Positions 2,757-47,962 are shown, counted from the first letter of the stretch. The stretch is DNA of 49,034 nucleotides from Candidatus Woesearchaeota archaeon (GCA_964554415.1 CAZKON010000001.1:1-49034); one strand, 5' to 3'. Notes: generated from the sequence alone by a model not told the origin. Numbers and translations are program-made.

Positions 2757-2831
2757 GATAAAGTGATGAGAAGCGTTTTTAAAAACCTATCCTGAAAGAT
2801 TAAATAAATGGTTTTTATGAGACTTTATAAT

Positions 2832-7014: not shown

Positions 7015-7018
7015 GGGA

Positions 7019-7795: not shown

Positions 7796-7912
7796 GTTTT
7801 CTCCGTGATGATGCCATCACTTTCTGATAGCAACTAAAGAGTTGTATTTATAGTCTTGGTTAGCTTTATTTACAACCAAAGGGTTTAATAATCTCACCTT
7901 ATTTGAAAAAGA

Positions 7913-14400: not shown

Positions 14401-14558
14401 CGCCCGGACCAGGATTTGAACCTGGGAATCCGTGAGGAAACGAGATTTTTGCTATCCTGCTTTTGCAGGCATCAGTAGTTTTCTACCTGCCTAAAGTTTC
14501 TTTTTCTAAAAGAAACTGTAGTAGCAATCTCGCGCCGTAACCGCTGGGCCATCCGGGC
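14401..14558 (-). tRNA. tRNA-Ser (anticodon GCU) with a ~75-nt intron at the canonical 37/38 position
   Basis: Exon 1 (14522..14558) is GCCCGGATGGCCCAGCGGTTACGGCGCGAGATTGCTA. Exon 2 (14401..14446) is ATCTCGTTTCCTCACGGATTCCCAGGTTCAAATCCTGGTCCGGGCG and includes the long variable arm. The 3' end of the intron (TAGCAA) is the exact complement of loop residues TTGCTA, followed by an AAA bulge, which is BHB-like. TATA cttataagcc lies about 28 nt upstream. Confidence 0.85.
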
Positions 14559-27841: not shown

Positions 27842-28237
27842 ATGGACTGGTATGACGACGACCCTTTTGAGGGCATATTTAGGGAATTTTTTGGGAATGC
27901 GCGCAGTCAGAGCCCTGTAAGAAAAAGGCGCGCTTCTTTCACAGAGGGTGAAGAAGAAGACAGGACGATTGATGCCATTGAGACAGAGCATTCAATTTTC
28001 TTCATCTTTGAGCTATCTGGCTACAGCGAAAAAGACATCTCAGTTAGCGTCAGGGAGCGACAGCTTGAGATAAATGCCAAGAAGCAGCAGGTTGCCGGTA
28101 TCCAAGAATACCTTCTCCAGAGGCTTCAACAAGGCATGATGATAAAGAAGGCCCTGCCCTCAGGAATTTCTGTGAAATCATTTAAGCACACTTTCAAGAA
28201 CGGCATTCTGGAGGTATGCTTCAAGAAGAATGACTAA
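27842..28237 (+). CDS. Small heat-shock protein (Hsp20/alpha-crystallin)
   Basis: 131 aa. Alpha-crystallin core FFIFELSGYSEKDISVSVRERQLEINAKK...FKNGILEV. TATA ctttataaatc about 27 nt upstream. 8-nt overlap with cdc48. Confidence 0.85.
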   Translation: MDWYDDDPFEGIFREFFGNARSQSPVRKRRASFTEGEEEDRTIDAIETEHSIFFIFELSGYSEKDISVSVRERQLEINAKKQQVAGIQEYLLQRLQQGMMIKKALPSGISVKSFKHTFKNGILEVCFKKND

Positions 28238-30437
28238 CGAACAGGACAAATCCACAACGCTGGAGATTGCAGAAGCGTTGCAGGAAGATATTGACAAAGG
28301 CATAGCGCGCATTCCTTCAAGAGCTCTTAAAAAGTTAGGGCTTGTTTCAGGAGATACTATTGAAATTAAAGGAAAACAGGCTGCCTCAATACGTGTTTTG
28401 CGCACCCCCCCGAAAGATGAATCAAAAGATATAATCCGAATTGATGGTACAACACGTGCAAACATTGGTTCATCTCTGGGGGAGCGTATCTCTGTAGTGC
28501 AGTTGGCAGTGCAGCCGGCAGAATCAATTACTCTCGCGCCAACACAAGAAGTCAGATTCAGCGATGACCCTACAGAATATTTTCATGCCAAGCTTTTAGA
28601 CCGTCCACTTGCGGTTAAGCAGGCAGTAATCATAGATGTTTTTGGCACGCGCCTAAGATACGTTGTAACAAAAACAAGCCCAAAAGGTTTCTGCATTGTT
28701 ACACCCTCAACAAAACTTTTAATCTCAGATGATGTGCAATCAGGAGATGCTAAGGCGACAAACGTAACTTATGAAGATATTGGAGGTCTGAAGAATGAAA
28801 TAGAACTAATCAGGGAGATGGTGGAGTTGCCGATGAAACACCCAGAAGTCTTTCAGAAACTGGGTGTAGGCGCGCCAAAGGGAGTGCTGCTAACTGGTCC
28901 TCCAGGAACTGGCAAGACACTTATTGCGAAGGCAGTTGCCAATGAAACTGATGCAAATTTTTACTCAATCGCAGGTCCAGAGATAATGAGCAAGTATTAT
29001 GGCGAATCAGAGAAGCATCTCCGTGAGGTTTTTGAAAAAGCAGAAAAAAATGCTCCTTCAATTATATTTATTGACGAGATTGATTCAATTGCACCCAAGC
29101 GCTCCGAAGGCACAGACCAGACAGAAAAACGCATTGTCGCGCAGCTTCTGACAGTTATGGACGGTCTGAAATCGCGCGGCCAACTGGTTGTTATGGCTGC
29201 GACAAACCGTCCTGACGATCTTGATGAAGCGCTTCGCCGCCCAGGAAGGTTTGATAGGGAGATACGGATTAATCCACCGGATGAGCGCGGCAGAAAGGAG
29301 ATTCTTCAGATTCATACAAGAGGTATGCCTCTGGAAAAAGATGTTAATTTCGAAGAATTAGCAGCGCGTACAATTGGATACACGGGTGCTGATGTTGAAG
29401 TTCTTTGCAAAGAAGCCGCGTTGAAATCAATTAAGCCGTATTTCAATGAACTGAAGAACATGCAGGATAGAGTTCCAACCGAGATTCTGGACAAGATAAA
29501 AGTAAGTAGGCAGCACTTTATTGATGCCATGAAGTTTGTAGAACCTTCAGCATTGCGGGAAGTTATGATAAGCAAACCGAATGTGCATTGGAATGATGTT
29601 GGTGGTTTGGAAGATGCAAAAGATAAGTTGCGCGAACTTGTTGAGCTTCCACTGCTTATGCCTGAGCTGTTCATCAAGGTAGGTATCAAGCCAGCAAAGG
29701 GAATTTTGTTGTCCGGTCTTCCAGGCACTGGAAAAACATTGTTGGCAAAGGCTGTTGCCACCGAGGCAAAAGCGAATTTCATCTCAGTAAAGGGTCCTGA
29801 ATTAGTGAGCAAATGGGTAGGCGAGTCAGAGAAGCACCTGCGGGAAATTTTCAAGAAAGCACGGCAGGTCGCTCCTACAATTATTTTCTTTGATGAATTT
29901 GACAGTATTGCAAAAGTCAGAGGTTCCTCTTTAAATGACAGCACAGAAAAAATGGTTAATCAACTTCTGACTGAAATGGACGGTGTCGAAGAGTTGGAGA
30001 AAGTAGTTATTATAGCAGCCACAAACAGGAAGGATTTGATTGATCCTGCATTGTTGCGCCCGGGGCGATTTGATGCGATTGTCGAGCTTTCCATTCCCGA
30101 CAAAAAAACACGTGAGAAAATATTTGCAGTGCATACACAGAAAATGCCTTTAGATTCATCTCTAAAGCTTACAGAGTATATTGAAAAAACCGATGGGTTT
30201 AATGGAGCAGAAATAGAAGCAATCTGTCGAGAGGCAGGTATTCGTACTATCAAACGGATGTATGGTGCCAAGATACTGCCTGATAGGATAACTGTTACAA
30301 AAGCTGATTTTGATGCAGCGTTTGAGGCAGTTATGCTGACAACAGGCAGAACACCGGAAAAAACTCTAAAAGAACAGAAGAAAGTATCGGAATCTGCGAA
30401 TGAAAAGAAAGACAAGCGCGCAATTACGGAGAATTAA
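28230..30437 (+). CDS. cdc48: Cdc48/VCP-like AAA+ ATPase
   Basis: 735 aa. N-domain, then D1 ([16 protein letters not shown]) and D2 ([16 protein letters not shown]) modules with second regions of homology. Confidence 0.95.
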
Positions 30438-31713: not shown

Positions 31714-32877
31714 TTACAAGCTAATCATCTGAACCTTCGGATTATCCACACTGCCAAAAGTTAGAGCAGCAAGGTATTGCACACTTCGTTCATCACATGC
31801 TCTGATTGTGGGAGAGACTGCAGAGCCATCAATGACAACAGCAAATATCTGCTTTCGTGAGCTCATAATATTTCTCGTTACTTCACGTGAACTTATTTTT
31901 TTGATAACATCAAAATTAGCATCAACTAAGACAGCGGTCCGTGTGCCCCTGATTTTCTCATATGATTCCTTAATCGCAGCATTCACATCTCCACCGTAAC
32001 TCTGTGATACTGTTGCCCCGGTTTCGCTGCTCAAATCTTCATCAAATCCTCGCTCAAACTGCAACCGCCGCAGAAATTCATCAGTCGGTAATTTTTTGCG
32101 TAGAGCCATAAGAATTTCTTTACCTGCAAGTTCTTCAACTTCCTTGCCATCAGGAGCCATGGCTACGAACAAAATACGCGCATTATTGATGACATTTTTG
32201 GCAATAAGCCTGCCCCCTCTGTCTCCATCAATGAAAAGAGTAAGCTCTTTGTCATTGCCAATTTTGGTAATAGTTATGGGTAATTTAGTTCCATTCATGC
32301 CAATGACATTATTCACTCTGTTTTTCAGCAGGTTTACAACATCTGCTCTGCCTTCAACTACAATAATTTCATTCCCATTCAAATCGCCTGCAGGAAGCTT
32401 TTCATCCCCATATTCTTGAATTTTCGAGGTACGTGCTTCTTCCTTCAACGTTCGCGACATCTCTCCTATCTCTCCTCCTTCATCAAGATTTTCAAGCAGT
32501 TTCTTTGCCCGTTCAAGAATAAAATCTCTTTTGCTTCCACGCACATCTTCGATTTTAGAAATTTCAATTTTAGCTTCAGTTGGGCCTATACGGTCTATTG
32601 TTTCCAGGGCTGCAGCAATAATAGTTGTCTCAGATTTATCAAGCGCGCTGGGAAGTTTAATCATTCCAACGCTCTTGCCGTCCACTATCTCCAAATCCAC
32701 TTCTATGCGGCCAATCCTGCCCTCTTTCTGCAATTCACGCATCTCCAAATCAGAGCCTAACAATCCCTCGGTTTGACCAAAGATAGCACCGATTACGTCG
32801 GGCTTCTCTAACGGCCCTTCTGCTCTAAATGAGGCATGGATCATATATTTAATCGATACCGGACTGATTTTTGCCAT
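31714..32877 (-). CDS. dnaG: Archaeal DnaG-type primase (TOPRIM protein)
   Basis: 387 aa. N-terminal IKYMIHASFRAEGPLEKPDVIGAIFGQTEGLLG is typical of archaeal DnaG. TOPRIM VVEGRADV and FIDGDRGG. Confidence 0.9.
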   Translation of the reverse strand: MAKISPVSIKYMIHASFRAEGPLEKPDVIGAIFGQTEGLLGSDLEMRELQKEGRIGRIEVDLEIVDGKSVGMIKLPSALDKSETTIIAAALETIDRIGPTEAKIEISKIEDVRGSKRDFILERAKKLLENLDEGGEIGEMSRTLKEEARTSKIQEYGDEKLPAGDLNGNEIIVVEGRADVVNLLKNRVNNVIGMNGTKLPITITKIGNDKELTLFIDGDRGGRLIAKNVINNARILFVAMAPDGKEVEELAGKEILMALRKKLPTDEFLRRLQFERGFDEDLSSETGATVSQSYGGDVNAAIKESYEKIRGTRTAVLVDANFDVIKKISSREVTRNIMSSRKQIFAVVIDGSAVSPTIRACDERSVQYLAALTFGSVDNPKVQMISL

Positions 32878-34286: not shown

Positions 34287-35570
34287 TTAAGCAATCTTCT
34301 TCGCTTTCAATTCAATGCAAACACCTGCTGCAACAGTTGCGCCTGCATCTCTGATAGCAAAACGAGCCATATGTGGATTTGCTGCCTGAGTCTCCAAAAC
34401 TAGGTTGCCAATTGGTTTGATGCGCACTTTTGCAACATCTCCATTCTTTAGAAAATCAGGAGCCTTTGCAGTCTGTCCGTCAGGGCTTGTCTTTTCAATT
34501 AGTTCTATGAATTGGCATGGTACCTGTGCAGTGTGGACATGGAATACTGGGGTGTATCCTTTTGCGATAACAGTAGGATGTGAGATGACTGCAACCTGAG
34601 CTACGAATTCTTCAGCAATTGTTGCAGGTTTTGCTGCATCACAAACTACATCGCCGCGTGCAACATCTTTCTTGCCAACGCCTCTGATGTTGATTCCAAC
34701 ATTGTCTCCTGCTTCTGCCTGAGGCAGTTGTTCATGATGCATCTCAATACTTCTGATTTCGCCTTCTATACCTTTTCCTGATCTTCCAGGAAGAATTATT
34801 ATTTTCTGAGCAATCTTCATAATTCCTGTCTCAATTTTACCGACAGGAACAGTTCCTATACCTGTAATTTCATAAACATCTTGCAAAGGCATACGAAGAG
34901 GTAAATCAATAGGCTTTTCAGGTTGCGCAAATAAGTCCATTTGCTCAAGAACAGTTGGTCCTTTATACCAGGGCATATTCGTGCTCTTTTTAACAACATT
35001 ATCTCCCTTGAAACCAGAGATTGCAAGGAACGTAATTGTATCAGGCTTGTATCCTGCCATCTTCAATACAGCAGAGACATCTGTCTTGGTCTTATTATAA
35101 GTGTCTTCTTTATATTCTACTGCATCCATCTTGTTGATGTTTACTGCAATTTGCTGAACACCCATTGTTCTGAGAAGCCAGACATGCTCTTTCGTCTGAG
35201 GCTGAACCCCATCTTTTGCAGAAATAGTAAGGAATGCACAATCTGCCTGGCTTGCACCAGTAATCATATTCTTAACGAAGTCTTTGTGCCCGGGCGCATC
35301 AATGATTGTGACTTCATATTTGTTAGTAACTAGTTTCTGATAAGATAAGTCAATTGTTACTCCTCGCTCTCGCTCTTCTTTAATGTTATCCATAACGAAT
35401 GCAAACTCAAAACCCGCTTTTCCATGTTTCTGAGCTTCTGCTTTTAGTTTCTCCAATTCTTCAGGAGATACTTTTCCAGAGTCAAACATCAAACGACCAA
35501 TAGTAGTTGACTTGCCATGGTCTACGTGACCGACGAACACAACATTAAGTGTTGGTTTTTGCTTTGCCAT
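34287..35570 (-). CDS. tuf: Translation elongation factor EF-1 alpha
   Basis: 427 aa. [26 protein letters not shown]. Own TATA (tttaaata on the coding strand) about 30 nt upstream. Confidence 0.97.
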
Positions 35571-35643
35571 AGTAATACATCTTCGTAAATTATAAGGTAT
35601 TTAAATCTTTCTTTTTTGGAATCTACCGTCGGCGCAGGACGAG

Positions 35644-35708
35644 TTAGCCTACGGCGACTCCGCAGCAAGGAAGTCTGCAGCTCTTTAGCCGAGGAACTCC
35701 GCAGCAAG
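35644..35708. repeat. GC-rich imperfect direct repeat (2 units, period about 39-41 nt) in the EF-1alpha/island spacer
   Basis: ttagcc at 35644..35649 and 35685..35690. actccgcagcaag at 35657..35669 and 35696..35708. Confidence 0.7.
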
Positions 35709-35775
35709 AGAGGAACGAGATGGTATAATGGATTAAAGTCGTATATAGTTTATATACGAAGATATAGTCAGGGCT

Positions 35776-35782
35776 AAAAAAA
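35776..35782 (-). terminator. Oligo-T (T7 on the minus strand) downstream of the 629-aa island gene
   Basis: gggctaaaaaaacc on the plus strand. Preceded on the minus strand by a small gagc-gaaa-gctc hairpin. Confidence 0.35.
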
Positions 35783-35857
35783 CCTAAATACGGAATACGT
35801 TTCACTATCGCGATTGAGCTTTCGCTCAGTCATCGCTGTAATGTTTTTCGTAGTCGC

Positions 35858-37747
35858 TCATGTCTCTGCCTCCCGCTCTGCAGAAACTCTCCTGCAGGCA
35901 AGTTTCGGGCTTACCCACGCAGCTGTTGCACCGCACTGGCGGGGAGCGATGGAGATTCCTTTTCCTCGGAGATAATGATAAATTTCTTTAGATTTAAATC
36001 CCACTGTTCTCAGTTGGCGTATCTCCTCTTTGACCTGTTCGGGCAGTGCATCGCATTTTTTCTTCTTGGGGGGAGGTACACTTTCAACAAGAGAGGTTGC
36101 GTCGCGTACATTTTGATAGTACATATCTATAACATGGGAAGTGACGGGTTTTTTCTGCATGATGCGAGCCCGAAGCTCATCAAAAAAAGCGTAGAAACGC
36201 GTTTCTTCAAGTGGTATCTGCAGGTTTTCCTGAAACCTGCTGCGCATAAAAGCTTTTTCAATTTTCTGTCGTTTATCTTCAGGAAGCGGTGCAAGCACAT
36301 CGTTCACAAAAAAGTCAATCGCTTTCTGATGCGTTCTCGGAAGTTGTGTGGTGAACTCTTGGGGAAGATAACCGATACGCTTGGGAAGGTCTTCTTTTAG
36401 AACATTGTTCTTTCCCTGCTGCGCATTTTCCTGAAAGACATTATTTCTTTCAGAAACAACAAGTTCATTACGCGGAGCAAGAACATGCTCTAATTCATTC
36501 ACATGCGCCCCAAGAACCTCATCATAGATGCGCCAAAACTTCTTTCCACTTCCCTGCAGGAAAAGGCCTCCTTTACGATAATGGACCATAGGGTCATTAC
36601 TCTTTGCAAACATGATGCTTTCACGTTCAGTTAGCGGGCGCAATCTCCCTGGTTCTTGTGCAATCTCGCTCTTCTCTCCAAGCGTGATGCGTAGCATTTG
36701 TGTTTCTTCCCCACTGTCAATCCAGGCAGTAAGATGTGAAATCTGCGAACGGAGATTCTCAGCATACAAGAAGTCATACAACATCGGACTTCCGGTATCA
36801 GATACGTATCTTCCTTTCATAAAATCCTTGATAAAATACGGCCTTCGTAATTGAAGAATCTCCCAGAGCGCATGGAGGCAATTCTGTTTTGCTGCATCAT
36901 GTGGAAATGACTGATGAAATACTCTCATGATATGCATATTCCTCACAGCAGCAATAGAAAGAACAGAAAGATAATGCTTTAAAGGATTTTCTCGAATAAC
37001 GTCGAAGGAAGGAATGCTTCCCTTATCAATGGAACGCAGGTAGGTATGCAAGAAAGGATCTCTCACAAGATCATCAAGTGTTTCTTGGACCGTGTTCGCG
37101 CTCAGCATATAACGCAATCGCGATGTAATACTCTTATCTCTCGTATCATCTAAACTCTGACAGCGCCAAAAATCGTTGCCAGCACTGAGTACACTCGCAA
37201 TGTTTTCCATTTCTTCTCTCTGGTTTGTTCGCGCTATCCTTGCGATTTCGCCAACATCTCCTCCTTTTTCAAAGAAGTCAATTGTTTTCTGATATTCTCC
37301 CTGTCTTTCTTTGCTTTCCCTTGAGCCATAAAAATTCGTCCCCATGATGCATCGGTTTTTCATGCGCTCGTTGAAAAAGACAGTTTTAAGGGTTTCCATC
37401 TCATCCTCTCCAAACTGTGACTTGAAATCAAGATTGATGATATCAAAACGTGGGGTGTTTTTAAGAGAGAAAAACGAAAGCGCAGAGCTTTCATGAACAT
37501 CAATTCCAAGCTTACGCTGGCGAAGTTCTTGTGCAGCTTCTGCATCCTGTTCAATACCATAAATGCGTGTCGGCTTGATTCCTAAAGGAAGATAGACTTC
37601 ACTCACTTCAAGACCTTCATGCCCTGGAAGACATGCAACGCGCAAATTACAGCGCTCAATTTCTGTTGGGTAATGCTTTTCGATAAAGCTTTTTAGTTGC
37701 GCGCGATACAGCCGCTTTGCTTCAAAGTCATAGGTGTCTTTTCTCAT
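35858..37747 (-). CDS. Island protein: Rossmann methyltransferase-like N-domain, large unknown middle, C-terminal HTH-like module
   Basis: 629 aa. LRVACLPG...YGIEQD...FDIINLDFKSQFG resembles SAM-MTase motifs I/II/IV (compare Trm1 D-L-D-P-F-G). Paralogous to the upstream 474-aa protein (shared TNFYGSRES, TGSPML-DF). The C-terminal ALPEQVKEEIRQLRTVGFKSKEIYHYLRGKGISIAPRQCGATAAW (35900..36049) is the shared module. Confidence 0.55.
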   Translation of the reverse strand: MRKDTYDFEAKRLYRAQLKSFIEKHYPTEIERCNLRVACLPGHEGLEVSEVYLPLGIKPTRIYGIEQDAEAAQELRQRKLGIDVHESSALSFFSLKNTPRFDIINLDFKSQFGEDEMETLKTVFFNERMKNRCIMGTNFYGSRESKERQGEYQKTIDFFEKGGDVGEIARIARTNQREEMENIASVLSAGNDFWRCQSLDDTRDKSITSRLRYMLSANTVQETLDDLVRDPFLHTYLRSIDKGSIPSFDVIRENPLKHYLSVLSIAAVRNMHIMRVFHQSFPHDAAKQNCLHALWEILQLRRPYFIKDFMKGRYVSDTGSPMLYDFLYAENLRSQISHLTAWIDSGEETQMLRITLGEKSEIAQEPGRLRPLTERESIMFAKSNDPMVHYRKGGLFLQGSGKKFWRIYDEVLGAHVNELEHVLAPRNELVVSERNNVFQENAQQGKNNVLKEDLPKRIGYLPQEFTTQLPRTHQKAIDFFVNDVLAPLPEDKRQKIEKAFMRSRFQENLQIPLEETRFYAFFDELRARIMQKKPVTSHVIDMYYQNVRDATSLVESVPPPKKKKCDALPEQVKEEIRQLRTVGFKSKEIYHYLRGKGISIAPRQCGATAAWVSPKLACRRVSAEREAET

Positions 37748-39168
37748 GATATTGCCTCCTGCAATTTCTTATCCTGCATCGTTACCCACGCTTTATAAGA
37801 ACCGAGCTGGCGTGACGAGATGTTATAGGTGTCACAAAGCTCTGCATCACTGACACTGCCGTCGCGAAGCCATGTGTAGATTTCTGCTTTTTCCGCTGGA
37901 GAAGGCTCGTGAAGCTCTCGTGTCGAAGGCTCTCCATTGTAACCACAAGATAATTCTGGAACAAGCTCAATGCGCGGAGTCATTCGAATAGAGGCTGTTC
38001 TGTAGAAGTCTATTTCTACTTTAAAGATTTGATCGAGAAGGTGCCCATAATCCATCCTTGCTGGGTTAAAAATAAGTTGCAGCTCTTTGGGATTGTATTG
38101 AAGAATACCCTGCGCAGCCATAGTGAGTCTCCTCGGCAGAGGCTGAAAGAGAAAGAAGTCTGCAAGCATCGGACTGCCCGTATTGCTCGTGTAAGCATAA
38201 CGCTCCAGAGTTTTCGGAAGATATGATTTTTGTGATTCCATACAGAGGATTCCGAAAAGTGCCCGTGCGCTTTCTGGATCCATCCAAGTATGAAGCTTGC
38301 GCTCCAATTCGGCTCTGCGGAGTCTGTAATATGCCTGCTCTGCAGGATGCATATCTTCAAGAAGGTCTCGATTTCTTGCATCAGAAAAGCTGTTCATTTC
38401 GTGAAGATGATTCAATAATTGTTCTTTAGACATTTCGTTGAGCTCAGAAGCAACGGCGTCGAGTACTTTCGTGCGATGAGGATCTTCAGAAAAGAAGTGC
38501 TTTCTTATGGGGCGATTGATAGTCCCCCCAGAGAAAATGTTGACGATCTCGGCAGTTATGCCGTCTCTCAATCGTTCAGGCCTCGCTTCTTGTGAAAGCC
38601 GCCTTACTATCTCTGCGGAGTTTTGCCTGATATCTTCGGGAGACTTGTCAAGTGCTTGCATAGCTTCTCTATGGGAATCAAGCGCAAGAATACGCCCTAC
38701 AAGCAATTTCTTCATAGATTCACTTTCGCGCGAGCCATAATAGTTCGTAGCTAAAATGCCATGATGACTCAATAATTGTCGAGAAGCAATATACTCTAAC
38801 GTAAGACACTCTTCAAGTGTCTGTTGCCCTTTATAATCCAAGCTGATGACATCAAACTCCTTCGGCGTTTCGCGCAGGAAATAGTCAGAGGCATCTCTTT
38901 CGACAACTTCGATTCCCAGATTCGCAGCGCGCAGGCGCTGCGCAGGCTCTGCTTCTCGTTCAAGACCAATAATGTTCTGCGGCAGAATACCAAGAGGCAG
39001 ATATACTTCTCGAACTTCAAGTGCTTCTTCTCCTTCCTGCTCTGCGCCGGGGAAGCACGCGACTCTCAACGAAGATGCTCTTCGATATGGAAGAATATTT
39101 TTCTGAACAAATTCTCTTAACTTAATGCGCCAGAGCTGCTTTGCGGGATCGTTATAGGTCTTGCTCAT
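37744..39168 (-). CDS. Island protein: paralogous methyltransferase-like N-domain plus C-terminal HTH-like module
   Basis: 474 aa. LRVACFPG...IGLERE...FDVISLDYKGQ, TNYYGSRES, TGSPMLADF. C-terminal AEKAEIYTWLRDGSVSDAELCDTYNISSRQLGSYKAW. Its stop overlaps the next start (ATGA at 37744..37747). GGAG 9 nt upstream of the ATG. Confidence 0.55.
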   Translation of the reverse strand: MSKTYNDPAKQLWRIKLREFVQKNILPYRRASSLRVACFPGAEQEGEEALEVREVYLPLGILPQNIIGLEREAEPAQRLRAANLGIEVVERDASDYFLRETPKEFDVISLDYKGQQTLEECLTLEYIASRQLLSHHGILATNYYGSRESESMKKLLVGRILALDSHREAMQALDKSPEDIRQNSAEIVRRLSQEARPERLRDGITAEIVNIFSGGTINRPIRKHFFSEDPHRTKVLDAVASELNEMSKEQLLNHLHEMNSFSDARNRDLLEDMHPAEQAYYRLRRAELERKLHTWMDPESARALFGILCMESQKSYLPKTLERYAYTSNTGSPMLADFFLFQPLPRRLTMAAQGILQYNPKELQLIFNPARMDYGHLLDQIFKVEIDFYRTASIRMTPRIELVPELSCGYNGEPSTRELHEPSPAEKAEIYTWLRDGSVSDAELCDTYNISSRQLGSYKAWVTMQDKKLQEAIS

Positions 39169-39202
39169 AGAAGTGCTCCTAAACGGTTTTCATATTTTGT
39201 TG

Positions 39203-39315
39203 TCAAGAACCCACGGACCGAAGTCCGGGACGTGTTCGGGTTCTTGAGCACGCTCAAGAATTCAATTTGCTTACTCACCTCTAAAGTAACGAGTTTGCGC
39301 AAATTAAATTCTTGA
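39203..39315. promoter_or_regulatory. Palindrome cluster (putative operators) in the divergent island control region
   Basis: TCAAGAA/TTCTTGA occurs four times in alternating orientation (39203, 39241, 39254, 39309). These build three inverted repeats: caagaaccc/gggttcttg (39204..39212 / 39238..39246), ttcttgag/ctcaagaa (39241..39248 / 39253..39260), and a 15-bp pair with one mismatch (39256..39270 / 39299..39313). Confidence 0.5.
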
Positions 39316-39422
39316 CGTATCATAGAAAGTGAGTACCGTTGACCTTTTTAAATCTTCCTTAGTATCTACTTTTTAGGTACTACAAAAGAAAGATTTATAA
39401 ACGCCGGTTGTCGGGGAAGAGG

Positions 39423-39887
39423 ATGGATTACAAGAAGTTTTTTGAAAGGAAGACGCAGGATGTTGCTCAGGAACTGCTTGGCAGAATAGTGGTTAGAAAA
39501 TTAGAGTCAGGCATATTTGCTGCGGAGATTACTGAAACAGGAGCGTATGTTGGTTTAGGGAACGATGTTCACGAAGATGCGCGCAAGGGAATGTTTTATA
39601 CTGCAGGGCACATTTTCCTGATGCCTTTCAGAGGATCTCAACTGTTTAATATTGCAAGCGGTGCAGGTAGCCCTGCGTGTGTCGAAATTCGAGAAGTGTG
39701 TGGTGAACGGCGCGTAGCAGGTTCTGGGGCAATTGCAAACTTTCTCAAACTTACTGCAAATATGAACAACATGCCATTGGGAGAGAAGTCAGGAGTGTAT
39801 ATCTCAGATGATTCTTATCGCACAGGAAAAGTCTCACGTTCCGAGGGGCAGGCGGATAACTGCAAAGGATTCTATTCCTTTGCGTAG
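39423..39887 (+). CDS. 3-methyladenine DNA glycosylase (AAG/MPG, Pur_DNA_glyco) homologue, short and divergent
   Basis: FFERKTQDVAQELLGRIVVRK...AAEITETGAYVG...MFYTAGHIFLMPFRGSQLFNIAS...CVEIREV...GSGAIANFLKL follows the AAG family pattern. The track start is a TTG at 39408. The ATG at 39423 sits about 25 nt downstream of tttataa (39394..39400). Confidence 0.65.
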   Translation: MDYKKFFERKTQDVAQELLGRIVVRKLESGIFAAEITETGAYVGLGNDVHEDARKGMFYTAGHIFLMPFRGSQLFNIASGAGSPACVEIREVCGERRVAGSGAIANFLKLTANMNNMPLGEKSGVYISDDSYRTGKVSRSEGQADNCKGFYSFA

Positions 39888-39895
39888 GGTGCATC

Positions 39896-42235
39896 ATGGT
39901 TTATGAATTGCGCCCGTACCAACTGCAGGCAGTCTACAAGCAGCTGACTGATAAAAGGATTATTCTCGCAGATGACATGAGCATGGGCAAATGTTTAGAA
40001 ACCATTGCTGCAAAACCCTTGATTGACGAAGAGATAGGATACCGCCCATCGTTGATTGTTTCTCCGTTGGCAGTCATTCCCCACTGGAATGAAGAAATTC
40101 AAAAATGGCATTACAAAGGCGCAAAAACTTCTATTGTACATATCTCCATCAGAGACATGGTTGAAGATATCAAAAGAGCAGAAGGTGCTGAGTTTGTGCT
40201 CACTTCGTATCCTTTCTTATCCGAAGTAGGAAAACGCCCTGAAGCTCTCGATGCTTTGCTTCGTCTGAATTTCGGACAGGGAGTGTTAGATGAAGGCCAT
40301 CTTACCAGCAATCCAGAATCATTGCGCACACAGTCAGCAAGGGCATTGTTTCACCGCATTCCTTTCCTGACGATTCTCACAGGTACGCCTATCCCCAACA
40401 CTTTGATTGACATCTATTCACAACTTAATTTGATTGACAGAGAAGCATTTCCAATAGAGGAAGGGAATGAAAATACTATGGTTGAAAGTTTTTATGAGAT
40501 TATCCGCACCAAGCCGCATCTGGTCAGGGACATTCTGCATAGCCGCATGCTCCGCCGCACCGCAGAAGAGTACCTTGGAAAAAAGATGCCTCTCCTCATT
40601 CAGGAAACGTTGGAGATACAGTTAACAGGAGAGCATGAAAATGTTTACGAATCAATCTATGAAAACGACGACATCCTCGTCTCTTCAAAATTAGATGAAT
40701 TAAGAAAAGTCTCAATTGAGCCTAATCTTGCAAACCCACGGTTCCTTCCTGAATCTCTGCAGCATCGCTTAGGAAAAATGAGTTCCTGCACGCTTACAAA
40801 AATGAAAGAGCGCGTTCACAACATTATCACAAAAGACAAAGGAAAAGTCCTTTGTTTTTCAGACCTTCGCGAAGGGGTTTTTCCTGTCGTTCAAAAGCTC
40901 TTTCAGGAATACGGCGTTGTTGCTGTCAACAAAGATGTTTCTCCTCACGCGGCTCCGGGGAAGACAGCTCCGCGGGAAGATGCGCGCAAAAAGTTTCAGT
41001 TTAACTCTTGCTATAACTTCATGATTTCAACGAATGTCATGGATGTGGGTGTGGATTTGACAGGAGCAACTCATGAGATTCATCTTACGCTGCCGTTTAT
41101 GCCTTCTTCACTTGACCAGCGCATCAGCAGGATGGTAAGAGTGACTGCAGAAATCGAGAAAAATGAGGCAACATCTATTATTCTCAATCCTGTAATGAGC
41201 AATGGCGCCCCGACAATCACTGAAGGTGTCATGCAGCTCCTTGACGATAAACGGAGGATTATCAGGTACATCTTAGAATCTCCTGAAAAGCTCACGCGCG
41301 AAGATTTAGAGGCGATTAAAAACGGACATCCAGAAAAATCTTCTAGACTTGCAGGCTTTCTCAGTAAAAAATCAAGGATGGATATCCATCTTGGTACATT
41401 GCGGGGCATGGGTGGGGCAAGGATTCTTTCAGATTATGAAGAAGATCCTTCGACTGCGCAAAATTTGGCTTCTACATATGTCAAATACTGGGAAGGCTAT
41501 TATGGAGGAAATACTGCTACATTAACCCAAACAGTTATTCACCAGCTCTTAGGCAAAGACTTGCGGGACCGCTCTTTTGTTGACATCTGTTCAGGACCTT
41601 TCTCACTTTCACGCCGTTTACAGGTTCCTGTCACAAATCTCGATTTGAACCACTACATGCTCGAGGCAGGAAAAGCGCTTGAACAACAAGGCATCGTTCC
41701 AGAGGGCAATATCGTTCATCAGGGGCTTGCAAATAACCTTCCTTTTACCGATAACAAGTTTGAGCTTGCAAATTGCTCTCTTGCACTGCATATGTCAACG
41801 CTTGCAGATGTTGTCGGCAATGGAAGAAGCGAGCGCGAAGAGATTTTTCGAGAGGCACATCGGGTCTCCAAGGAGTTTTATGTATTTACCATGCCTCCCA
41901 GTGTCATCCGCAGAAGCGACCTGCCAACTTTCAAATTAGGATTAGAGCACATGGGCTGGGATATTCTGCCGCAGACAGGGTATTATCGCGGGACAGGAGA
42001 TTCTAAATTCAAGGTGTTTTTATGCGCATTGCAAAAAAGGGATAGCGGCAATGCAGAACCTGTTCCGGAAGAGCTTCTGCACTGGACTCTCGATGACAAA
42101 ATCAGAAACACGCGAAAAGGTAGGACAAGCTCTCCAAGAAAGGGTGGAATACCACGAAAGAAGAAAGACAAGTTTGAGCTCGTTTCAGGGTTTGTTCAGG
42201 AAGATTCAGGAATGGTTGTGGGAGGTGGAGCATGA
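39896..42235 (+). CDS. SNF2-family ATPase fused to a C-terminal class I SAM-dependent methyltransferase
   Basis: 779 aa. LRPYQ, motif I LADDMSMGKC (Cys codon 39992..39994), motif II LDEGH, motif III LTGTP, motif V STNVMDVGVDLTGA, motif VI QRISRMVRV. The MTase part has motif I VDICSGPFS (41579..41602), NLDLN, and LPFTDNKFELANCSLALHM (Methyltransf_11-like). Basic tail. Confidence 0.8.
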   Translation: MVYELRPYQLQAVYKQLTDKRIILADDMSMGKCLETIAAKPLIDEEIGYRPSLIVSPLAVIPHWNEEIQKWHYKGAKTSIVHISIRDMVEDIKRAEGAEFVLTSYPFLSEVGKRPEALDALLRLNFGQGVLDEGHLTSNPESLRTQSARALFHRIPFLTILTGTPIPNTLIDIYSQLNLIDREAFPIEEGNENTMVESFYEIIRTKPHLVRDILHSRMLRRTAEEYLGKKMPLLIQETLEIQLTGEHENVYESIYENDDILVSSKLDELRKVSIEPNLANPRFLPESLQHRLGKMSSCTLTKMKERVHNIITKDKGKVLCFSDLREGVFPVVQKLFQEYGVVAVNKDVSPHAAPGKTAPREDARKKFQFNSCYNFMISTNVMDVGVDLTGATHEIHLTLPFMPSSLDQRISRMVRVTAEIEKNEATSIILNPVMSNGAPTITEGVMQLLDDKRRIIRYILESPEKLTREDLEAIKNGHPEKSSRLAGFLSKKSRMDIHLGTLRGMGGARILSDYEEDPSTAQNLASTYVKYWEGYYGGNTATLTQTVIHQLLGKDLRDRSFVDICSGPFSLSRRLQVPVTNLDLNHYMLEAGKALEQQGIVPEGNIVHQGLANNLPFTDNKFELANCSLALHMSTLADVVGNGRSEREEIFREAHRVSKEFYVFTMPPSVIRRSDLPTFKLGLEHMGWDILPQTGYYRGTGDSKFKVFLCALQKRDSGNAEPVPEELLHWTLDDKIRNTRKGRTSSPRKGGIPRKKKDKFELVSGFVQEDSGMVVGGGA

Positions 42236-43377
42236 GCGCTGATATTCCTGAATCAGTTAAAGAAGAAATCCGCAAATTGAGAAAACAAGGTCTAAGAGTG
42301 AGAGAAATCTATGATATCACGAAAGGAAAATGCCCTTCTATGAACATTAAACAATGCGGCTCTATCGCAGCATGGATAAAAGAAAGCCTTGCACAAAAGA
42401 GAAAATCCAAGAATGCACGAGTAGTACAGAGCAACGGCTCCTCTCCGGCAGCAACGTATAAAAATGTCAGCAACATAGCAGAAAAAAGAACAAAAGCCAT
42501 GAACGAAAACAGGGAAATAACATCTAAAGCATCGCCTCTCGAAGCAGTTGCACAGGAAAAACCGACGTGGGCAGGCAATGAAGGGCCGATAATTACTAAA
42601 GCAGAGGCGATTCATATGCTTTCACAAGGATACGATCCGGGAAAAATGGCAGGATATTACAAAGGGTTTACAGAAGGAGAATTAGTTGCATTTAGCGCCC
42701 ATATAAATATGGGTACTTATAAAAACAATCCTGCGCTTCTCGAAGGCAACGGCAAAAAAAGGGGAAATGGTGAAAGCAAACCTATCCACAAGAAAGAGGA
42801 TTTTATTCCTTTCGTAGCGAAGAATGGACTTGCTCGCGACATGTCTCTGCTTGCTCTGACTCTTAGCGCAGATGGCGGGCAGATAGAAGAAGCAATTATG
42901 GAACTCTATCACGGAAAATTCAAGAGCAAGGACGAACTGCACGAACTATTAAAAGAGACGAAGGAAGATATTGCCAAGATTATTGAAGAAGGAGTCACGA
43001 ATCTCGGCGCATTTATGGGGGATTATACACTGTTCGACCGCCGCATGGCTCCGATTATCTTAGGTGGAGTAGCGAATGCAATTCCTCTGGATAAAGCAAC
43101 ACCTTCACTTGAAAAGATGCTGCTGCGCGTCGCGCACGGGCTATGGGATCCTGCATTTAACAGAGACACGCGAGGAACAATCGCAGATTTAACAAAAAAA
43201 GCAGAGAAGAGCGTTAACCTTGCCCAGGGAATGTATGCCTCTCTGGTAAGGCATTATCAGGCAACGCTTACAATAGAGGAAAATCTGAAAAAGTACGAAG
43301 CAGCGTGGAATGCCCAAAACACTAAAGTTGAAACAGATGGCTCTGCAAGCATGGCAATGTCAAGAAAAAGCGCATAA
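42232..43377 (+). CDS. Island protein with an N-terminal HTH-like module; rest unknown
   Basis: 381 aa. N-terminal IPESVKEEIRKLRKQGLRVREIYDITKGKCPSMNIKQCGSIAAW is about half identical to the C-terminus of the 629-aa protein. ATGA overlap with the SNF2-MTase stop (42232..42235). Confidence 0.55.
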   Translation: MSADIPESVKEEIRKLRKQGLRVREIYDITKGKCPSMNIKQCGSIAAWIKESLAQKRKSKNARVVQSNGSSPAATYKNVSNIAEKRTKAMNENREITSKASPLEAVAQEKPTWAGNEGPIITKAEAIHMLSQGYDPGKMAGYYKGFTEGELVAFSAHINMGTYKNNPALLEGNGKKRGNGESKPIHKKEDFIPFVAKNGLARDMSLLALTLSADGGQIEEAIMELYHGKFKSKDELHELLKETKEDIAKIIEEGVTNLGAFMGDYTLFDRRMAPIILGGVANAIPLDKATPSLEKMLLRVAHGLWDPAFNRDTRGTIADLTKKAEKSVNLAQGMYASLVRHYQATLTIEENLKKYEAAWNAQNTKVETDGSASMAMSRKSA

Positions 43378-43398: not shown

Positions 43399-45588
43399 TT
43401 ACTGATTCTCCGCTAAACCCTTTCTCTGTCGAATCTCTCCAATAACACTTGGTTGCAGTTCATTCGGCAATTTCTGGAATTCCTGGTCCATCAGACTCGA
43501 GACTCCTCTGCCTTCAGTCGAGCTTCGTAAATCAGAGCTCCATCCAATCATTTCAGCAACAGGAATCTTTGATTTGATGTGAGCGTCAATACCTTCCTGG
43601 TTTACATCAATCAGGATGCCTCTCTTGCTTCCGACAAGCTGGGTAACAGAGCCCATGAATTCCATCGGGACTTCAATGAGATGTGTCTGTATGGGTTCAA
43701 GTATTATTGCTCCGCCTTTTTTCATACAATCATGCATGCCAAGCCTTACAGCAGGATAAATCTGCGCAGGACCTCTGTGCATGTGGTCAACGTGTAGTTT
43801 TGCGTCATGCAATATGAATTTAGTTTTCATCATAGGCTCTTTAGCGAGCGGTCCTCCATTAATAACAAGTCTCCATCCATCAAGTATTGACTCTATAACT
43901 TCAGGCAGTAAAACCAGGCCTCTTGTTCTCTCCTCAAATACATTGCCTTTGTAAATCTCTTGATATTGTCTTGCTTCTTCATTAGAGATTCCCAGAGCTG
44001 AAAGTTTTTTCCATAGCTCTTCTGCCTTCTTCTTGACTCTGCCTTCAGGCAACTCATTGCGTTCAATGGCATCATAAATCTCTTTTTCCAGAGGCTCCAT
44101 GCTGATATAAAATATATTATGGCCATTTGGTGTTCGTACTTCAATTTCAGGAGAACCCTTGGCGATTGACTCGCGATAAACAACAATTGGCGGTCCCATC
44201 TTCACATCAAGTCCTTTTTCAGTCTTTATTCTTCCTTCAATAATTTCCAGATGTAGCTCTCCCATACCAGAAAGAAGGTTCTCTCCTGTCTCTTCGTTAA
44301 TCTCAATTTTAATGCTCGGGTCTTCTTTGCCGACTTTTCTCAATACTTCAATGAGTTTTGGAAGATCCTGGGATTTTACAACTTCAATTGATTTAGTGAT
44401 AACTGGCTGGAATATATGCTTAATCTCCTCAAAAGGCGTCTGCTCGTTCAAGGTCAGCGTGTCTCCTACTTCAGAATTGAGTCCGGAGATTGCAAGAACA
44501 TTTCCTGCTGGAACGCTTTCCAGTTGTTCTGGTTTTATTCCATTATAAACTAAAACCTGCTGCACGCGGTATTTTCTTTTATTCATTGCAGAATACAATT
44601 CCATGCCGTTCTGGATAGTTCCAGAATATAATCTTCCGGCAGAGATCTCTTTTCCAGACCTGGGATCAATAACAATCCTTGTGATAACAAATGCAGGCTC
44701 GCCATCACGATTACAATTAATCAAGTCCTGCCCTAATTTACTTTCAGGATCTCCTCTCCAGATTTTAGGGATTCTGTATTTCTGTGCTTCAAGCGGGTTA
44801 GGAAGGTGTTTGACAGCCATATCAAGAATAACTTCGTGCAAGGGAGCGTTTTCCCATACCCATTTCTTCCTCGGCTCTTCTTCCATCTCATAGATTTTAT
44901 AAATATCTTTAAATGAGATATTTCTTTTCTTCATGAATGGCGCAGATAATGCCCAGTTCTCTCTTGCACTTCCAAAAGAAACGCTTCCATCAAAGACGTT
45001 AACCTGCCACTTTTCTTTATATTCTGGTTCAGCAATCTGCATGATTAAGTGATTGAAAGACTCTATTAGCTTCTTGAATCGCTCCTGCATCTGCTCAGGC
45101 GTTATTTTTAACTCTTTTATTAATCTGTCAACTTTATTGATGAACAGGACAGGCTTCACACGCTCTCTTAATGCCTGCTTCAAAACTGTCTCTGTTTGAG
45201 GCATTATTCCCTCTACAGCGCAAATTAGAACAAATGTGCCATCAATTGCCCGCATTGCTCTTGTAACATTGCCACCAAAGTCTACATGGCCTGGCGTGTC
45301 AATAAGATTGATAAGATATTCTTGTCCAAGATATTCGTGTGGCATGCTCACGTTTGCCGCGTCAACTGTCATAAGTCTCTCCTGCTCGTCAGAGTGCTGC
45401 CATGTTGTCATACCTTCTTCAAGGTCACCTGCATTTTTTGATGCCATCATGCCTGCTGCTGCAAGAAGATTGTCTGTAAACGCGGTTTTTCCGTGGTGAA
45501 TGTGCGCGCTCGTAGCTACATTTCTTATGTTCTTCTGATTTGAAGTCAATCGTTGGATTTTGTCTAAATTTGTTTCTTTCTCTGCCAT
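43399..45588 (-). CDS. fusA: Translation elongation factor EF-2
   Basis: 729 aa. AHIHHGKTAFTDNLL, DTPGHVDF, NKVDR, and a C-terminal diphthamide-region HRGPAQ. Confidence 0.97.
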   Translation of the reverse strand: MAEKETNLDKIQRLTSNQKNIRNVATSAHIHHGKTAFTDNLLAAAGMMASKNAGDLEEGMTTWQHSDEQERLMTVDAANVSMPHEYLGQEYLINLIDTPGHVDFGGNVTRAMRAIDGTFVLICAVEGIMPQTETVLKQALRERVKPVLFINKVDRLIKELKITPEQMQERFKKLIESFNHLIMQIAEPEYKEKWQVNVFDGSVSFGSARENWALSAPFMKKRNISFKDIYKIYEMEEEPRKKWVWENAPLHEVILDMAVKHLPNPLEAQKYRIPKIWRGDPESKLGQDLINCNRDGEPAFVITRIVIDPRSGKEISAGRLYSGTIQNGMELYSAMNKRKYRVQQVLVYNGIKPEQLESVPAGNVLAISGLNSEVGDTLTLNEQTPFEEIKHIFQPVITKSIEVVKSQDLPKLIEVLRKVGKEDPSIKIEINEETGENLLSGMGELHLEIIEGRIKTEKGLDVKMGPPIVVYRESIAKGSPEIEVRTPNGHNIFYISMEPLEKEIYDAIERNELPEGRVKKKAEELWKKLSALGISNEEARQYQEIYKGNVFEERTRGLVLLPEVIESILDGWRLVINGGPLAKEPMMKTKFILHDAKLHVDHMHRGPAQIYPAVRLGMHDCMKKGGAIILEPIQTHLIEVPMEFMGSVTQLVGSKRGILIDVNQEGIDAHIKSKIPVAEMIGWSSDLRSSTEGRGVSSLMDQEFQKLPNELQPSVIGEIRQRKGLAENQ

Positions 45589-46732: not shown

Positions 46733-47962
46733 TTAGGTTGATATTACCATTTTTTCCTCGCTTGTCGCTTTCGGTTGTTTAATTGAATTTAATAGCATAG
46801 TTTCCCATCTATTCCCAGATAAACCTATTCCACACCTTTCAGCAGGAGTTAATTTATCTTTCTCACACTTTTTTATGAAGTTATGAAACACCTTAAAGCC
46901 ATCTGAATAATCCTGAACTTCTGTTATTCCTCTCCTGACTTTCTGAAATTCCTTTTGATGAGTGTGCAAGTTTTCAATAGCATTATTATTTACTACTCTC
47001 CTTTGTCCAAGTATTGAAGTGTGCTTTACTTTTCTCTCGGCACCCCAGTTTCTAAAAGTCTTTCTTATCCCATCTTGATAAGCACCCAGTTTGTCGGTTA
47101 TGATTTGATTAGGCATTTTTATATTTTGTTTATATGCTTCTCTCATAACTATTTCAGCGTCTTTTGAACTTCTGCCTCTCCCAGAATTAACAGAAGCCAG
47201 TAAGAATTTTGTTTTGTTATCCATAACATTCCAAACATAATCAAATTCAGCATTAGGGTTTTTCTTGTCTATTCCCCTCTTTGTTTTAACCATAGTTTCG
47301 TCTGCGTTCCAAACCCCAGAAGTTTTTGGAGTTAATGTCTTTGAGTATTTTTCCATAACTTCTGTAAATCTTAAAACCCATCTTCTTATTGTTTCGTGGT
47401 GCAATTTTAAGCCATAGAATTGTGAGAACTGGTCGGCAATATCTCGGTAGCTTAATCCTTTGTAGTAGCAATCCATAGCCAAACAAACTAATTTAGCATT
47501 TCCCTTTATATTTTTTATTGGAGATAAAACAAACTTTTTATGACAATCCTTACAGCTAAACCTTTGTTTATCTCCTGATTTGTCGTGCCTTACTCCAAAC
47601 TTTGTTATATTCTTTGAAGCACAATAAGGGCAACAATCATCAAGAGGTTTATTTATGATTAATTCTATCTGTTGTTTTACTGGGCTTTCTTCAACTTCAT
47701 AAGCATTTTTCAGTTTCTCAAATAAAAGAATAGCTTTAATGTGTTTGCAGTATAAACCTTGTCCCTTACATCTTAATTCAAAATCCTTACAATTACAAGA
47801 ATAGCTATCAAAATGAGTAACTTCATACTTTTTACTGCTGTCAAATTGAGAAGGCACTAAGTAAGTATTCTCATCTAAACATTCTGGGTTACCTATTTGT
47901 AAGATGGCTTTTGCTCTTACATCTCTATTCTCTGTAAATTGTTTAATATTTTGTGTTTCCAT
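46733..47962 (-). mobile_element. IS6/IS240-like DDE transposase with an N-terminal SWIM zinc finger and a zinc ribbon
   Basis: 409 aa. SWIM CxC...CxH (YSCNCKDFELRCKGQGLYCKHIKA), ribbon CPYC...CKDC. DDE pattern WNADETMVK / IITDKLGAYQ / NNNAIENLH matches the IS6-family layout. I could not identify terminal inverted repeats. Confidence 0.75.

Follow-up and report, generated by a model that had tools for sequence, protein, structure and literature searches.

A DPANN gene cassette encoding a SNF2-methyltransferase fusion, a glycosylase-fold protein and helix-turn-helix proteins between EF-2 and EF-1alpha

A five-gene cassette flanked by translation factors

We analysed a stretch of 49,034 nucleotides from a Candidatus Woesearchaeota archaeon (GCA_964554415.1 CAZKON010000001.1:1-49034; hereafter the window), in which five genes separate those for elongation factor 2 (EF-2) and EF-1alpha. 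An initial annotation had described these genes as a modification and remodelling island within the S12-S7-EF-2-EF-1alpha cluster. Open reading frame (ORF) and profile checks recovered the five ORFs at the coordinates it gave, with the flanks as claimed; it was also right that S10 does not follow EF-1alpha, the next gene encoding a TPR protein. The folds are known ones, but their combination has not been described before and, on the available data, occurs in DPANN archaea only. The features of the cassette (HTH, helix-turn-helix; MTase, methyltransferase; aa, amino acids) are:

34287-35570, minus strand: EF-1alpha, flanking gene (TIGR00483, 614 bits)
35858-37747, minus strand: p629, 629 aa, module B paralogue
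37744-39168, minus strand: p474, 474 aa, module B
39169-39422: divergent promoter spacer, 254 bp
39423-39887, plus strand: AAG-fold (Pur_DNA_glyco) homologue, 154 aa; the mechanical ORF is 39408-39887, 159 aa from TTG
39896-42235, plus strand: SNF2-MTase fusion, 779 aa
42232-43377, plus strand: p381, 381 aa, adaptor-like HTH protein
43399-45588, minus strand: archaeal EF-2, flanking gene (TIGR00490, 884 bits)

The proposed organisation into two divergent, tightly packed operons was confirmed by the 254-bp spacer and by both predicted ATGA overlaps, one between p474 and p629 (37747-37744, minus strand) and one between the SNF2-MTase gene and p381 (42232-42235, plus strand); 8 bp separate the stop codon of the AAG-like gene from the SNF2-MTase start. 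Orthologues of all five genes (51-71% identity) are found in the same arrangement on other contigs, showing that these are real genes rather than chance ORFs and that they do co-occur elsewhere as a cassette. Since the orthologues of the small protein begin at Met6 of the 159-aa ORF, the AAG-like gene probably starts at ATG 39423, which gives the 154-aa protein and the 254-bp spacer. Compared with 80 metagenome-assembled genome (MAG) loci, the EF-2 of the window is 69-93% identical, and nearly all of these loci are labelled Pacearchaeota, Woesearchaeota or Nanoarchaeota; the exceptions are a few labelled only 'archaeon', one Iainarchaeum and one binned as Parcubacteria. The window is accordingly assigned to a DPANN archaeon of the Pacearchaeota/Woesearchaeota type, with approximately 40% G+C.

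A SNF2-methyltransferase fusion in a conserved operon

The 779-aa protein consists of a SNF2 ATPase (residues approximately 1-480), a Methyltransf_11-type MTase (approximately 540-720) and a basic tail. SNF2-rel_dom (PF00176) and Helicase_C (PF00271) match at 99 and 45 bits, respectively, in agreement with the single remodeller ATPase expected for the island, and Methyltransf_11 matches at E 7e-7. Both SNF2 lobes are present, and motifs II (DE(A/G)H), III ((L)TGTP) and VI (QRxxRxxR) are invariant in 26 members, which places the protein in the SNF2 family. The closest solved relative is Sulfolobus SSO1653 (1z63, 7.5e-36), followed by ISWI, ZorD (8qy7), CHD1L and CSB; SSO1653, ISWI, ZorD and CSB are double-stranded DNA translocases. 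The fused MTase is more generic: profile matches are confined to Methyltransf_11 and Methyltransf_25, and solved structures gave only weak YcgJ-like matches (E 0.1). The SNF2-MTase fusion of the initial annotation is therefore real, with the qualification that its MTase half belongs to no recognised DNA-MTase family. Its motif I (D-I-[AC]-[SC]-G-P-F-S-L-S-R) and motif II (NLD) residues are invariant across the 26 members; the domain is plausibly an active enzyme.

The SNF2-MTase family comprises approximately 28 clusters (E 0 to 1e-135), below which scores fall to those of generic SNF2 proteins (about 1e-20); one member is labelled Nanoarchaeia. We surveyed approximately 20 SNF2-MTase loci from NCBI, ENA, Tara, JGI and Logan data. 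An AAG-like gene precedes the fusion in every locus for which that flank is available, and one to three proteins with the p381 C-domain and variable HTH repeats lie before and/or after it, again in each locus with the flank available. All loci with an attributable taxon are DPANN, and other loci have archaeal neighbours such as L37e, LSM, S8e, TFIIB and TFIIS. The AAG-like protein (approximately 150 aa), the SNF2-Methyltransf_11 fusion (approximately 780 aa) and at least one HTH protein with the p381 C-domain thus form a robust, conserved operon, which we call module A. A metagenome scan with an alignment of the MTase half returned 15 loci, and one with a p381 alignment none; a GTDB scan with the full SNF2-MTase alignment was dominated by the generic Walker A pattern, and all its matches were unrelated SNF2 genes of bacteria.

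Some copies have bacterial-type neighbours. In the Pacearchaeota contigs (L002, which is the same contig as L172, and L167), bacterial-type GroES/GroEL, type I GAPDH, PGK and class II FBP aldolase genes adjoin the cassette. In L003, a 527-aa protein (42-1625, minus strand) with bacterial-type Sigma70 regions 2 and 4 (region 4 E 4e-18; best NCBIfam match MzaA/RpoD-like) is encoded 143 bp downstream of the cassette and co-directionally with it, on a contig that is otherwise cassette only; this protein has no similarity to the cassette HTH modules. The L002 genes and the L003 sigma-70-like gene suggested inter-domain transfer from bacteria, which was rejected: L002 belongs to a Pacearchaeota MAG, L167, from an NCBI assembly, has the same aldolase/PfkB synteny, and all other titled loci are DPANN. 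Such genes could mislead taxonomic assignment of the contigs that carry them. In a Nanoarchaeia genome (L168-L171, approximately 1366-8199), the protein encoded directly upstream of module A is 2277 aa long and matches SLT (lytic transglycosylase) weakly.

The third component of module A is defined by the C-domain of p381, a conserved all-helical region of approximately 170 aa (approximately 180-352) that follows two HTH modules (4-59 and 121-166; predicted local distance difference test (pLDDT) approximately 80). The initial annotation had described a private HTH-like module shared between proteins of the island. Such modules are real, and two subtypes recur in p381, p474 and p629: residues 568-623 of p629 match p381 4-59 (49% identity), and the C-terminus of p474 matches p381 121-166. 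Given that DUF433 is matched by 17 of 40 copies (best E 1.3e-4), with further matches to HTH_23, HTH_7 and CENP-B_N, we assign the module to the homeodomain-like HTH. HTH types resembling DUF433, HTH_23 and HTH_7 are typical of DNA binders. Pfam gave no match for p629, p474 or p381.

A glycosylase fold without the catalytic glutamate

The initial annotation had proposed an AAG-like glycosylase homologue. The fold is supported by a Pur_DNA_glyco (PF02245) match of 47.4 bits (cut-off 27 bits), while the catalytic Glu is absent from all orthologues. In comparison with the human AAG chains 3qi5 and 1ewn (the latter the E125Q mutant, which marks the catalytic position), 'ETEAY' is replaced by 'ETGAY', with Gly at the position of Glu125; all six orthologues aligned, the most distant at 42% identity, have this Gly. 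In addition, Tyr159 is Met and the wedge or intercalating Tyr162 is an invariant Arg, so that neither the general base nor the intercalating Tyr is found in the six orthologues. The equivalent of the stacking Tyr127 is invariant. These substitutions suggest that the protein is probably non-catalytic and that it would flip out or hold a base without cutting. Compared with AAG/MPG proteins in general (PF02245), the likeness lies in the significant match over the N-terminal half and in the Tyr127 equivalent; the differences are the size (approximately 150 aa versus approximately 190-220 aa), the changes at positions 125, 159 and 162, and the constant location of the gene beside SNF2-MTase.

The window also contains two genes that recur near relatives of the cassette:

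22220-23455: S-layer-like gene
23798-24583: AP_endonuc_2 gene

AAG folds recognise damaged purines, and the Methyltransf_11 class includes protein MTases. Both points favour a chromatin or repair factor, in which a SNF2 remodeller and a protein MTase (acting on a histone, Alba or another chromatin protein) would be recruited by HTH adaptors or, alternatively, a CSB/Mfd-style lesion-sensing complex would use the AAG-like subunit to sense purine lesions and the motor to clear or expose the site. The SNF2 matches, which include ISWI, CHD1L and ERCC6/Rad26, are consistent with such a role, as is the presence of AP_endonuc_2 near the cassette in the window and inside the arrangement of contig ERZ1426824. 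However, conserved local synteny accounts for the linkage with AP_endonuc_2, no orthologue has the residue with which base excision would begin, and the cluster encodes nothing similar to a reader of histones or other chromatin proteins. We regard a chromatin or repair function as distinctly improbable.

A widespread family with a class I methyltransferase fold

The minus-strand operon encodes p474 and p629, paralogues with 31% identity over 358 aa (E 5e-34), which we call module B. The N-domain of p474 was modelled by AlphaFold2 (AF2) with a pLDDT of approximately 85-90. Along the chain, the model shows strands beta1-beta5, a helical insert of approximately 165 residues, a beta6-beta7 hairpin that carries the conserved 'RY.S.TGSPM..D', and a three-helix C-terminal module. 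Foldseek matched it with probability 1.0 to class I MTases, the best compact matches being RsmD-family structures (2ift and 2fpo; target-normalised TM-score 0.5-0.6), PmtA, Trm1 and fibrillarin. Invariant residues occupy canonical SAM-binding and catalytic places, with P40-G41 after beta1, E70 at the end of beta2 and D111-[YF]112 after beta4. Strand order, Foldseek probability and the invariant E70 and D111 together assign the N-domain of p474 and p629 to the class I S-adenosylmethionine (SAM)-dependent MTase fold; the p474 model places it with the RsmD/Trm1-like forms, and SAM binding is predicted. The estimate of up to three MTase-like domains therefore holds, with p474 supported by its model and Foldseek, p629 by homology to p474, and the fusion by Methyltransf_11.

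The likeness to RsmD and Trm1, whose motif IV is DPPF or DLDPFG, lies in the class I fold and in the acidic-aromatic pair D111-Y/F112 directly after beta4, as in amino-MTases. The p474 family differs from them in the approximately 165-aa helical insert between beta5 and beta6-7 and in the C-terminal HTH, and there is no sequence-level membership; its motif IV is [NS]LD[FY], lacking the prolines of (D/N/S)PP(Y/F/W). Sequence comparison of the p474 family with solved structures gave no link, and one p474 relative has sub-threshold Methyltransf_31, RsmB-F and Cons_hypoth95 (RsmD) matches over residues 32-116. p629 begins with a class I SAM-MTase-like domain (approximately 1-150). After it come a variable helical insert, a conserved 'GRYVSDTGSPM..DF' hairpin and an additional middle region, and the protein ends with an HTH (568-623) whose subtype is that of the p381 N-terminus. 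Searches of Pfam, NCBIfam, PADLOC and PHROG with p629 gave no match; its orthologues are 624 aa in L002 (51%) and 675 aa in L003 (46%).

p474 belongs to a widespread DPANN subfamily of approximately 450-aa proteins with a C-terminal DUF433/HTH_23-like HTH (approximately 420-470). A word-indexed search with p629 returned 8 relatives only, and an exhaustive profile search 1032 representative clusters, 324 of them below 1e-30; most are 430-480 aa long, like p474, and the family has no Pfam model. The twenty module B loci found in GTDB are all DPANN by title, except for two binned as Methanosarcinales. Seventeen of the twenty (L173-L191, minus the short fragments L180 and L190) hold a lone gene, with no SNF2-MTase or AAG-like gene within 8 kb. 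HNH-like C-termini in some relatives (P0137, E 0.003; P0178, E 0.02; also visible in P0006) point to DNA as the substrate. Two further fusions were seen among p474 relatives, one with a radical SAM domain (P0142) and one with an N-terminal tubulin/FtsZ fragment (P0221), the latter possibly an assembly or gene-call artefact.

The structural matches raise the question of an RNA substrate. The p474 family could consist of DPANN-specific rRNA or tRNA base MTases (m2G-type, RsmD/Trm1-like), with the SNF2-MTase acting on transcription or ribonucleoprotein complexes. Its best compact structural matches are indeed the RsmD family, Trm1, fibrillarin and other RNA MTases; moreover, the family is very widespread in Woese- and Pacearchaeota, usually as one copy, and has a translation-factor neighbourhood in the window, L025 and L186, with the same S-layer-like gene beside the L173, L188 and ERZ1426824 copies. 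Against this, the C-terminal HTH types are typical of DNA binders, the SNF2 core resembles double-stranded DNA translocases, and HNH fusions and up to six paralogues per locus would be unusual for rRNA or tRNA MTases. Pfam and NCBIfam also revealed no THUMP, PUA or other RNA-binding domain and no above-threshold RNA-MTase family. Modification of RNA or of ribonucleoproteins is thus, in our view, unlikely. Nor did profile searches assign the five proteins to a known RNA-modification or housekeeping pathway, an outcome for which the initial annotation had allowed.

Two modules behind a shared promoter

Modules A and B are adjacent, in the same divergent layout, in the window, L002, L003 and L167 (51-71% identity), and neighbours in other layouts in L197 (convergent) and on the ERZ1426824 contig. 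L002 has six module B paralogues in a row, with divergent inserts. The proposal of a single five-gene unit does not survive this survey: there are two modules with different distributions, of which module A travels together while members of the p474 family are usually lone genes. In three MAGs with an island-free EF-2 to EF-1alpha gap, a p474-like gene is found on another contig (L016/L173, L008/L188 and L050/L176).

The spacer had been called palindrome-rich. This is correct, but only an inverted BRE/TATA-like pair, of the AAAGATTTATAAA type and its inverse (39345-39360 and 39386-39401), is conserved in orthologous spacers, being present in all four divergent cassettes (window, L002, L003 and L167). 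Sharing of this pair suggests that modules A and B are probably co-regulated in this clade. Within the spacer, a window-specific segment of approximately 115 bp (39203-39315) in the 5' region of the minus operon contains TCAAGAA/TTCTTGA four times as two inverted pairs, against the approximately 0.08 copies of TCAAGAA that its density across the whole window would predict for 113 bp. The L002 and L003 spacers lack this segment, and L167 has one TCAAGAA copy; the segment may represent an operator or the insertion of a small element.

Members of module B also recur in similar surroundings. Homologues of the S-layer-like gene lie beside or near the p474-like genes of L173, L188, L025 and L186, the AP_endonuc_2 of L025 is 70% identical to the window copy, and the neighbours of the ERZ1426824 cassette have the same Pfam labels as those of the window, including a Toprim gene. 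In L186, the module B member is directly upstream of EF-1alpha, and in L025 it lies between EF-2 and EF-1alpha. The module B family may thus be a long-term resident of this rearranging neighbourhood, which is suggestive only, since these members fall in different subfamilies (22-43% identity).

A fluid interval between EF-2 and EF-1alpha

The location of the five genes had been presented as a striking interruption of a conserved cluster. This did not hold up: in approximately 50 relatives with both genes, the gap between EF-2 and EF-1alpha ranges from 150 bp to 6 kb and contains 0-9 ORFs, mostly lineage-specific. Those that can be named form a miscellany (PCMT, PAP2, DUF1761, radical SAM, MazE/PhoU-like, Ser/Thr kinase, HD-GYP/GAF, DHO dehydrogenase, pyridine-nucleotide oxidoreductase and Zot-like ATPase). 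Given that both size and content vary, the position is not special and the location of the cassette is incidental. The closest relative, L007, is 93% (EF-2) and 95% (EF-1alpha) identical in protein and 76-79% in DNA, and lacks the cassette. Homology with L007 at the DNA level breaks off at 43400, a point 21 bp away from the stop codon of p381, and resumes at 35616, with 1.19 kb carrying a PCMT gene in place of the 7.78 kb of the window. In this lineage the gap is a generally fluid interval, and the gain, loss or exchange of the five genes left no mobility signature there that could be recognised. Neither an integrase nor a tRNA, att site or significant repeat marks the borders, which show only a chance-level 9-mer, and the tRNAs of the window are more than 20 kb from the island. 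An integrated virus or other mobile element was considered and rejected, because three IMG/VR scans were empty, PHROGs matched the generic helicase core only, and no integrase or att repeats were found. The G+C content of the island is 0.43-0.46 (window mean 0.40; the 28-31 kb region also reaches 0.44).

Several observations concern the surroundings. Between the p629 stop codon and the EF-1alpha promoter, which has its own BRE/TATA-like box near 35595-35610, lies a G+C-rich stretch (35617-35857), in which the 13-nt sequence ACTCCGCAGCAAG is repeated exactly and in direct orientation (35657 and 35696) and CGTATATA..TATATACG makes up a perfect hairpin (RNA fold z-score -2.8; no match in Rfam). 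Directly upstream of S12 and outside the island, the window encodes a 409-aa DDE transposase-like protein (46733-47962, minus strand; DDE_Tnp_IS240 E 2e-12, IS66-like, SWIM zinc finger), and the relative L008 has a 64%-identical copy near S12. Other neighbours encode a TrmB regulator (26459-27211), Hsp20 (27842-28237), a CDC48-type AAA ATPase (28230-30437) and a Toprim (DnaG-like) protein (31714-32877). No defence genes were found among ten ORFs scanned at 22-33 kb and 46.7-48 kb, the neighbours being ordinary housekeeping genes. The Rfam scan gave tRNAs only, one of which, a third tRNA (14401-14558, minus strand, 158 nt) that presumably contains an intron, is absent from the ARAGORN output. 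The EF-2 genes of nine DPANN relatives (L007, L056, L057, L058, L060, L073, L075, L078 and L085) have insertions of approximately 0.6-1 kb relative to the window, with match spans of 2.8-3.2 kb; that of L007 (145-730, 586 bp) falls between window positions 45488 and 45489. These insertions may be inteins.

The variable occurrence of the cassette bears on a defence function of the DISARM/BREX type against viruses or plasmids, in which the MTases would mark self, the SNF2 motor and AAG-like protein would detect unmodified or foreign-modified DNA, and the C-domain of p381 or the middle region of p629 would act as an as yet unrecognised effector that blocks or degrades it. Module A is sporadic and rare, with approximately 28 clusters versus more than 1000 for the p474 family, and the cassette occupies different chromosomal places in related genomes and is missing from L007. 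Defence would also fit the SNF2 domain, which scores best against ZorD, DpdE and DrmD models, the paralogue expansion and HNH-fused relatives of module B, and a DDE transposase 3.3 kb away. On the other hand, the cassette encodes no nuclease, PLD, PglZ, DUF1998, TGT or other hallmark, PADLOC detects the generic SNF2 core only, and the neighbours are housekeeping rather than defence genes in every context seen. The borders lack integrase, att repeats and tRNA, and no relatives occur in viral contigs (IMG/VR) or PHROGs. Defence of this kind therefore appears doubtful. As no nuclease or other effector, defence-island neighbours or viral or plasmid-like context was found, the self/non-self role suggested in the initial annotation is a conjecture.

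A possible ATP-driven DNA methylation module

Our preferred reading, which we put forward tentatively and at somewhat less than an even chance, is that the cassette is an ATP-driven, HTH-targeted DNA methylation module of the DPANN lineage, acting most likely on double-stranded DNA. Module A would be a reader-motor-writer machine. In it, the SNF2 domain would use ATP to translocate on DNA or distort it, and the fused Methyltransf_11 domain would methylate the site thus made accessible. The AAG-fold subunit, with its stacking Tyr kept and an Arg at the wedge position, would flip out, hold or sense a (possibly modified) purine without cutting, and p381-type proteins would tether the complex to DNA via their HTH modules. 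p474 and p629 would be amino-methyltransferases tethered by their HTHs, with target specificities that differ according to their variable inserts, and they would be transcribed in this clade from the bidirectional promoter that also serves module A. What the analysis shows are the domain and fold assignments, the missing catalytic Glu, the strict joint occurrence of the module A components, the conserved promoter pair and the confinement to DPANN. We infer DNA as the substrate, a reader role of the AAG-like protein and a complex of the components, whose purpose would be to mark DNA epigenetically or to protect it by self-modification, not to provide a complete defence of the restriction type.

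A number of points weigh against DNA methylation. No Pfam or NCBIfam match to a recognised DNA-MTase family (N6_Mtase, MethyltransfD12, N6_N4_Mtase, DNA_methylase or MT-A70) was found, and MTases with a Methyltransf_11 or RsmD/Trm1-like fold typically act on small molecules, RNA or proteins. Throughout the SNF2-MTase family, Walker A reads GKC instead of GKT/S, so that ATPase competence is only putative. The Pur_DNA_glyco match covers the N-terminal half only (model positions 1-94 of 181). The AF2 model of p381 is poor overall (pLDDT 60), and a structural identification of this protein failed, Foldseek against the PDB giving no match with E <2. Finally, approximately half of the distinct module A contexts lack a module B gene within 8-10 kb, and p474-like genes mostly stand alone and apart from module A, so that a functional link between the modules would be limited to a clade.

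The genomes of DPANN archaea are tiny, and for most of these organisms a life attached to other cells is assumed; it is therefore notable that several conserved genes are devoted to methyltransferases and a DNA motor. If the DNA methylation reading is true, the cassette would be an ATP-coupled system built from a SNF2 motor and a repurposed, inactive repair-glycosylase fold, together with a large, unmodelled family of HTH-tethered MTases (more than 1000 clusters) that would be useful for understanding DPANN methylomes and host-symbiont or virus interactions. Should the targets be RNA or protein, the value would be more modest, namely new lineage-specific modification enzymes.

Comparison with known systems

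As the initial annotation had stated, the cassette does not match DISARM, BREX, Dnd, Dpd or type I-IV restriction-modification (R-M) beyond generic SNF2 similarity, and assignment to a known defence system was rejected because the PADLOC matches comprise only the generic SNF2 core. The closest parallel among defence systems is with class 1 DISARM, which likewise encodes a SNF2-family ATPase with methyltransferase(s) and acts via recognition of unmethylated DNA (bioRxiv 10.1101/2021.12.28.474362). The DrmD hidden Markov model (HMM) matches are weak, however (NF038318, 36 bits versus a 950-bit cut-off), with no DrmMI or DrmMII. PADLOC, Pfam and NCBIfam found no DrmA helicase, DrmB (DUF1998) or DrmC (PLD) in the five proteins, and the MTase is not an N6- or C5-DNA-MTase. 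For BREX, PglZ, BrxC and PglX are absent and there is only a weak BrxHI-like match to the helicase C-domain (E 7e-8); for Dpd, there is no TGT-like protein and only generic DpdE-like SNF2 similarity (51 bits versus a 500-bit cut-off). For Zorya, ZorA/B and a nuclease domain are lacking and the ZorD HMMs align with the SNF2 core only (residues 5-460). Similarly, the five proteins have no HsdM/Mod, specificity or Res/HsdR match of type I/III R-M in Pfam, NCBIfam or PADLOC. We did not find this gene combination described in the literature searched.

The motor itself is most like SSO1653 (1z63), its best solved relative and an archaeal Rad54/SNF2-like ATPase with a double-stranded DNA translocase core; unlike our fusion, SSO1653 carries no methyltransferase domain and has neither AAG-like nor HTH partners. 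In overall architecture, the nearest parallels come from eukaryotes. A SNF2 motor and a SAM methyltransferase do share one polypeptide in the fungal Dnmt5, which depends on ATP hydrolysis by SNF2 to methylate (bioRxiv 10.1101/2020.01.05.895227). The CDCA7-HELLS pair splits the work, with a small protein of its own sensing a modified base and cooperating with the SNF2 ATPase (PMC11343034), a sensor part that the AAG-like subunit could play. The differences are substantial: our protein is archaeal, has SNF2 first (the reverse order), Methyltransf_11 in place of a C5-DNMT domain and no chromodomain or RING, and the candidate sensor is an AAG fold, not a zinc finger. Since the MTase types are unrelated, the resemblance to Dnmt5 is an analogy of architecture and possible working, not of membership. 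Taken further, module A might be an archaeal maintenance-methylation machine in which the dead AAG reads a methylated purine on the parental strand and the SNF2-MTase copies the mark, with the p474 family as new, unmodelled HTH-guided DNA methyltransferases. This would make it a functional analogue of Dnmt5 or CDCA7-HELLS of independent origin, a proposal to which we attach a low probability. If the broader reading of the cassette as a DNA methylation module is correct, it would provide a prokaryotic comparison point for eukaryotic SNF2-dependent DNA methylation.

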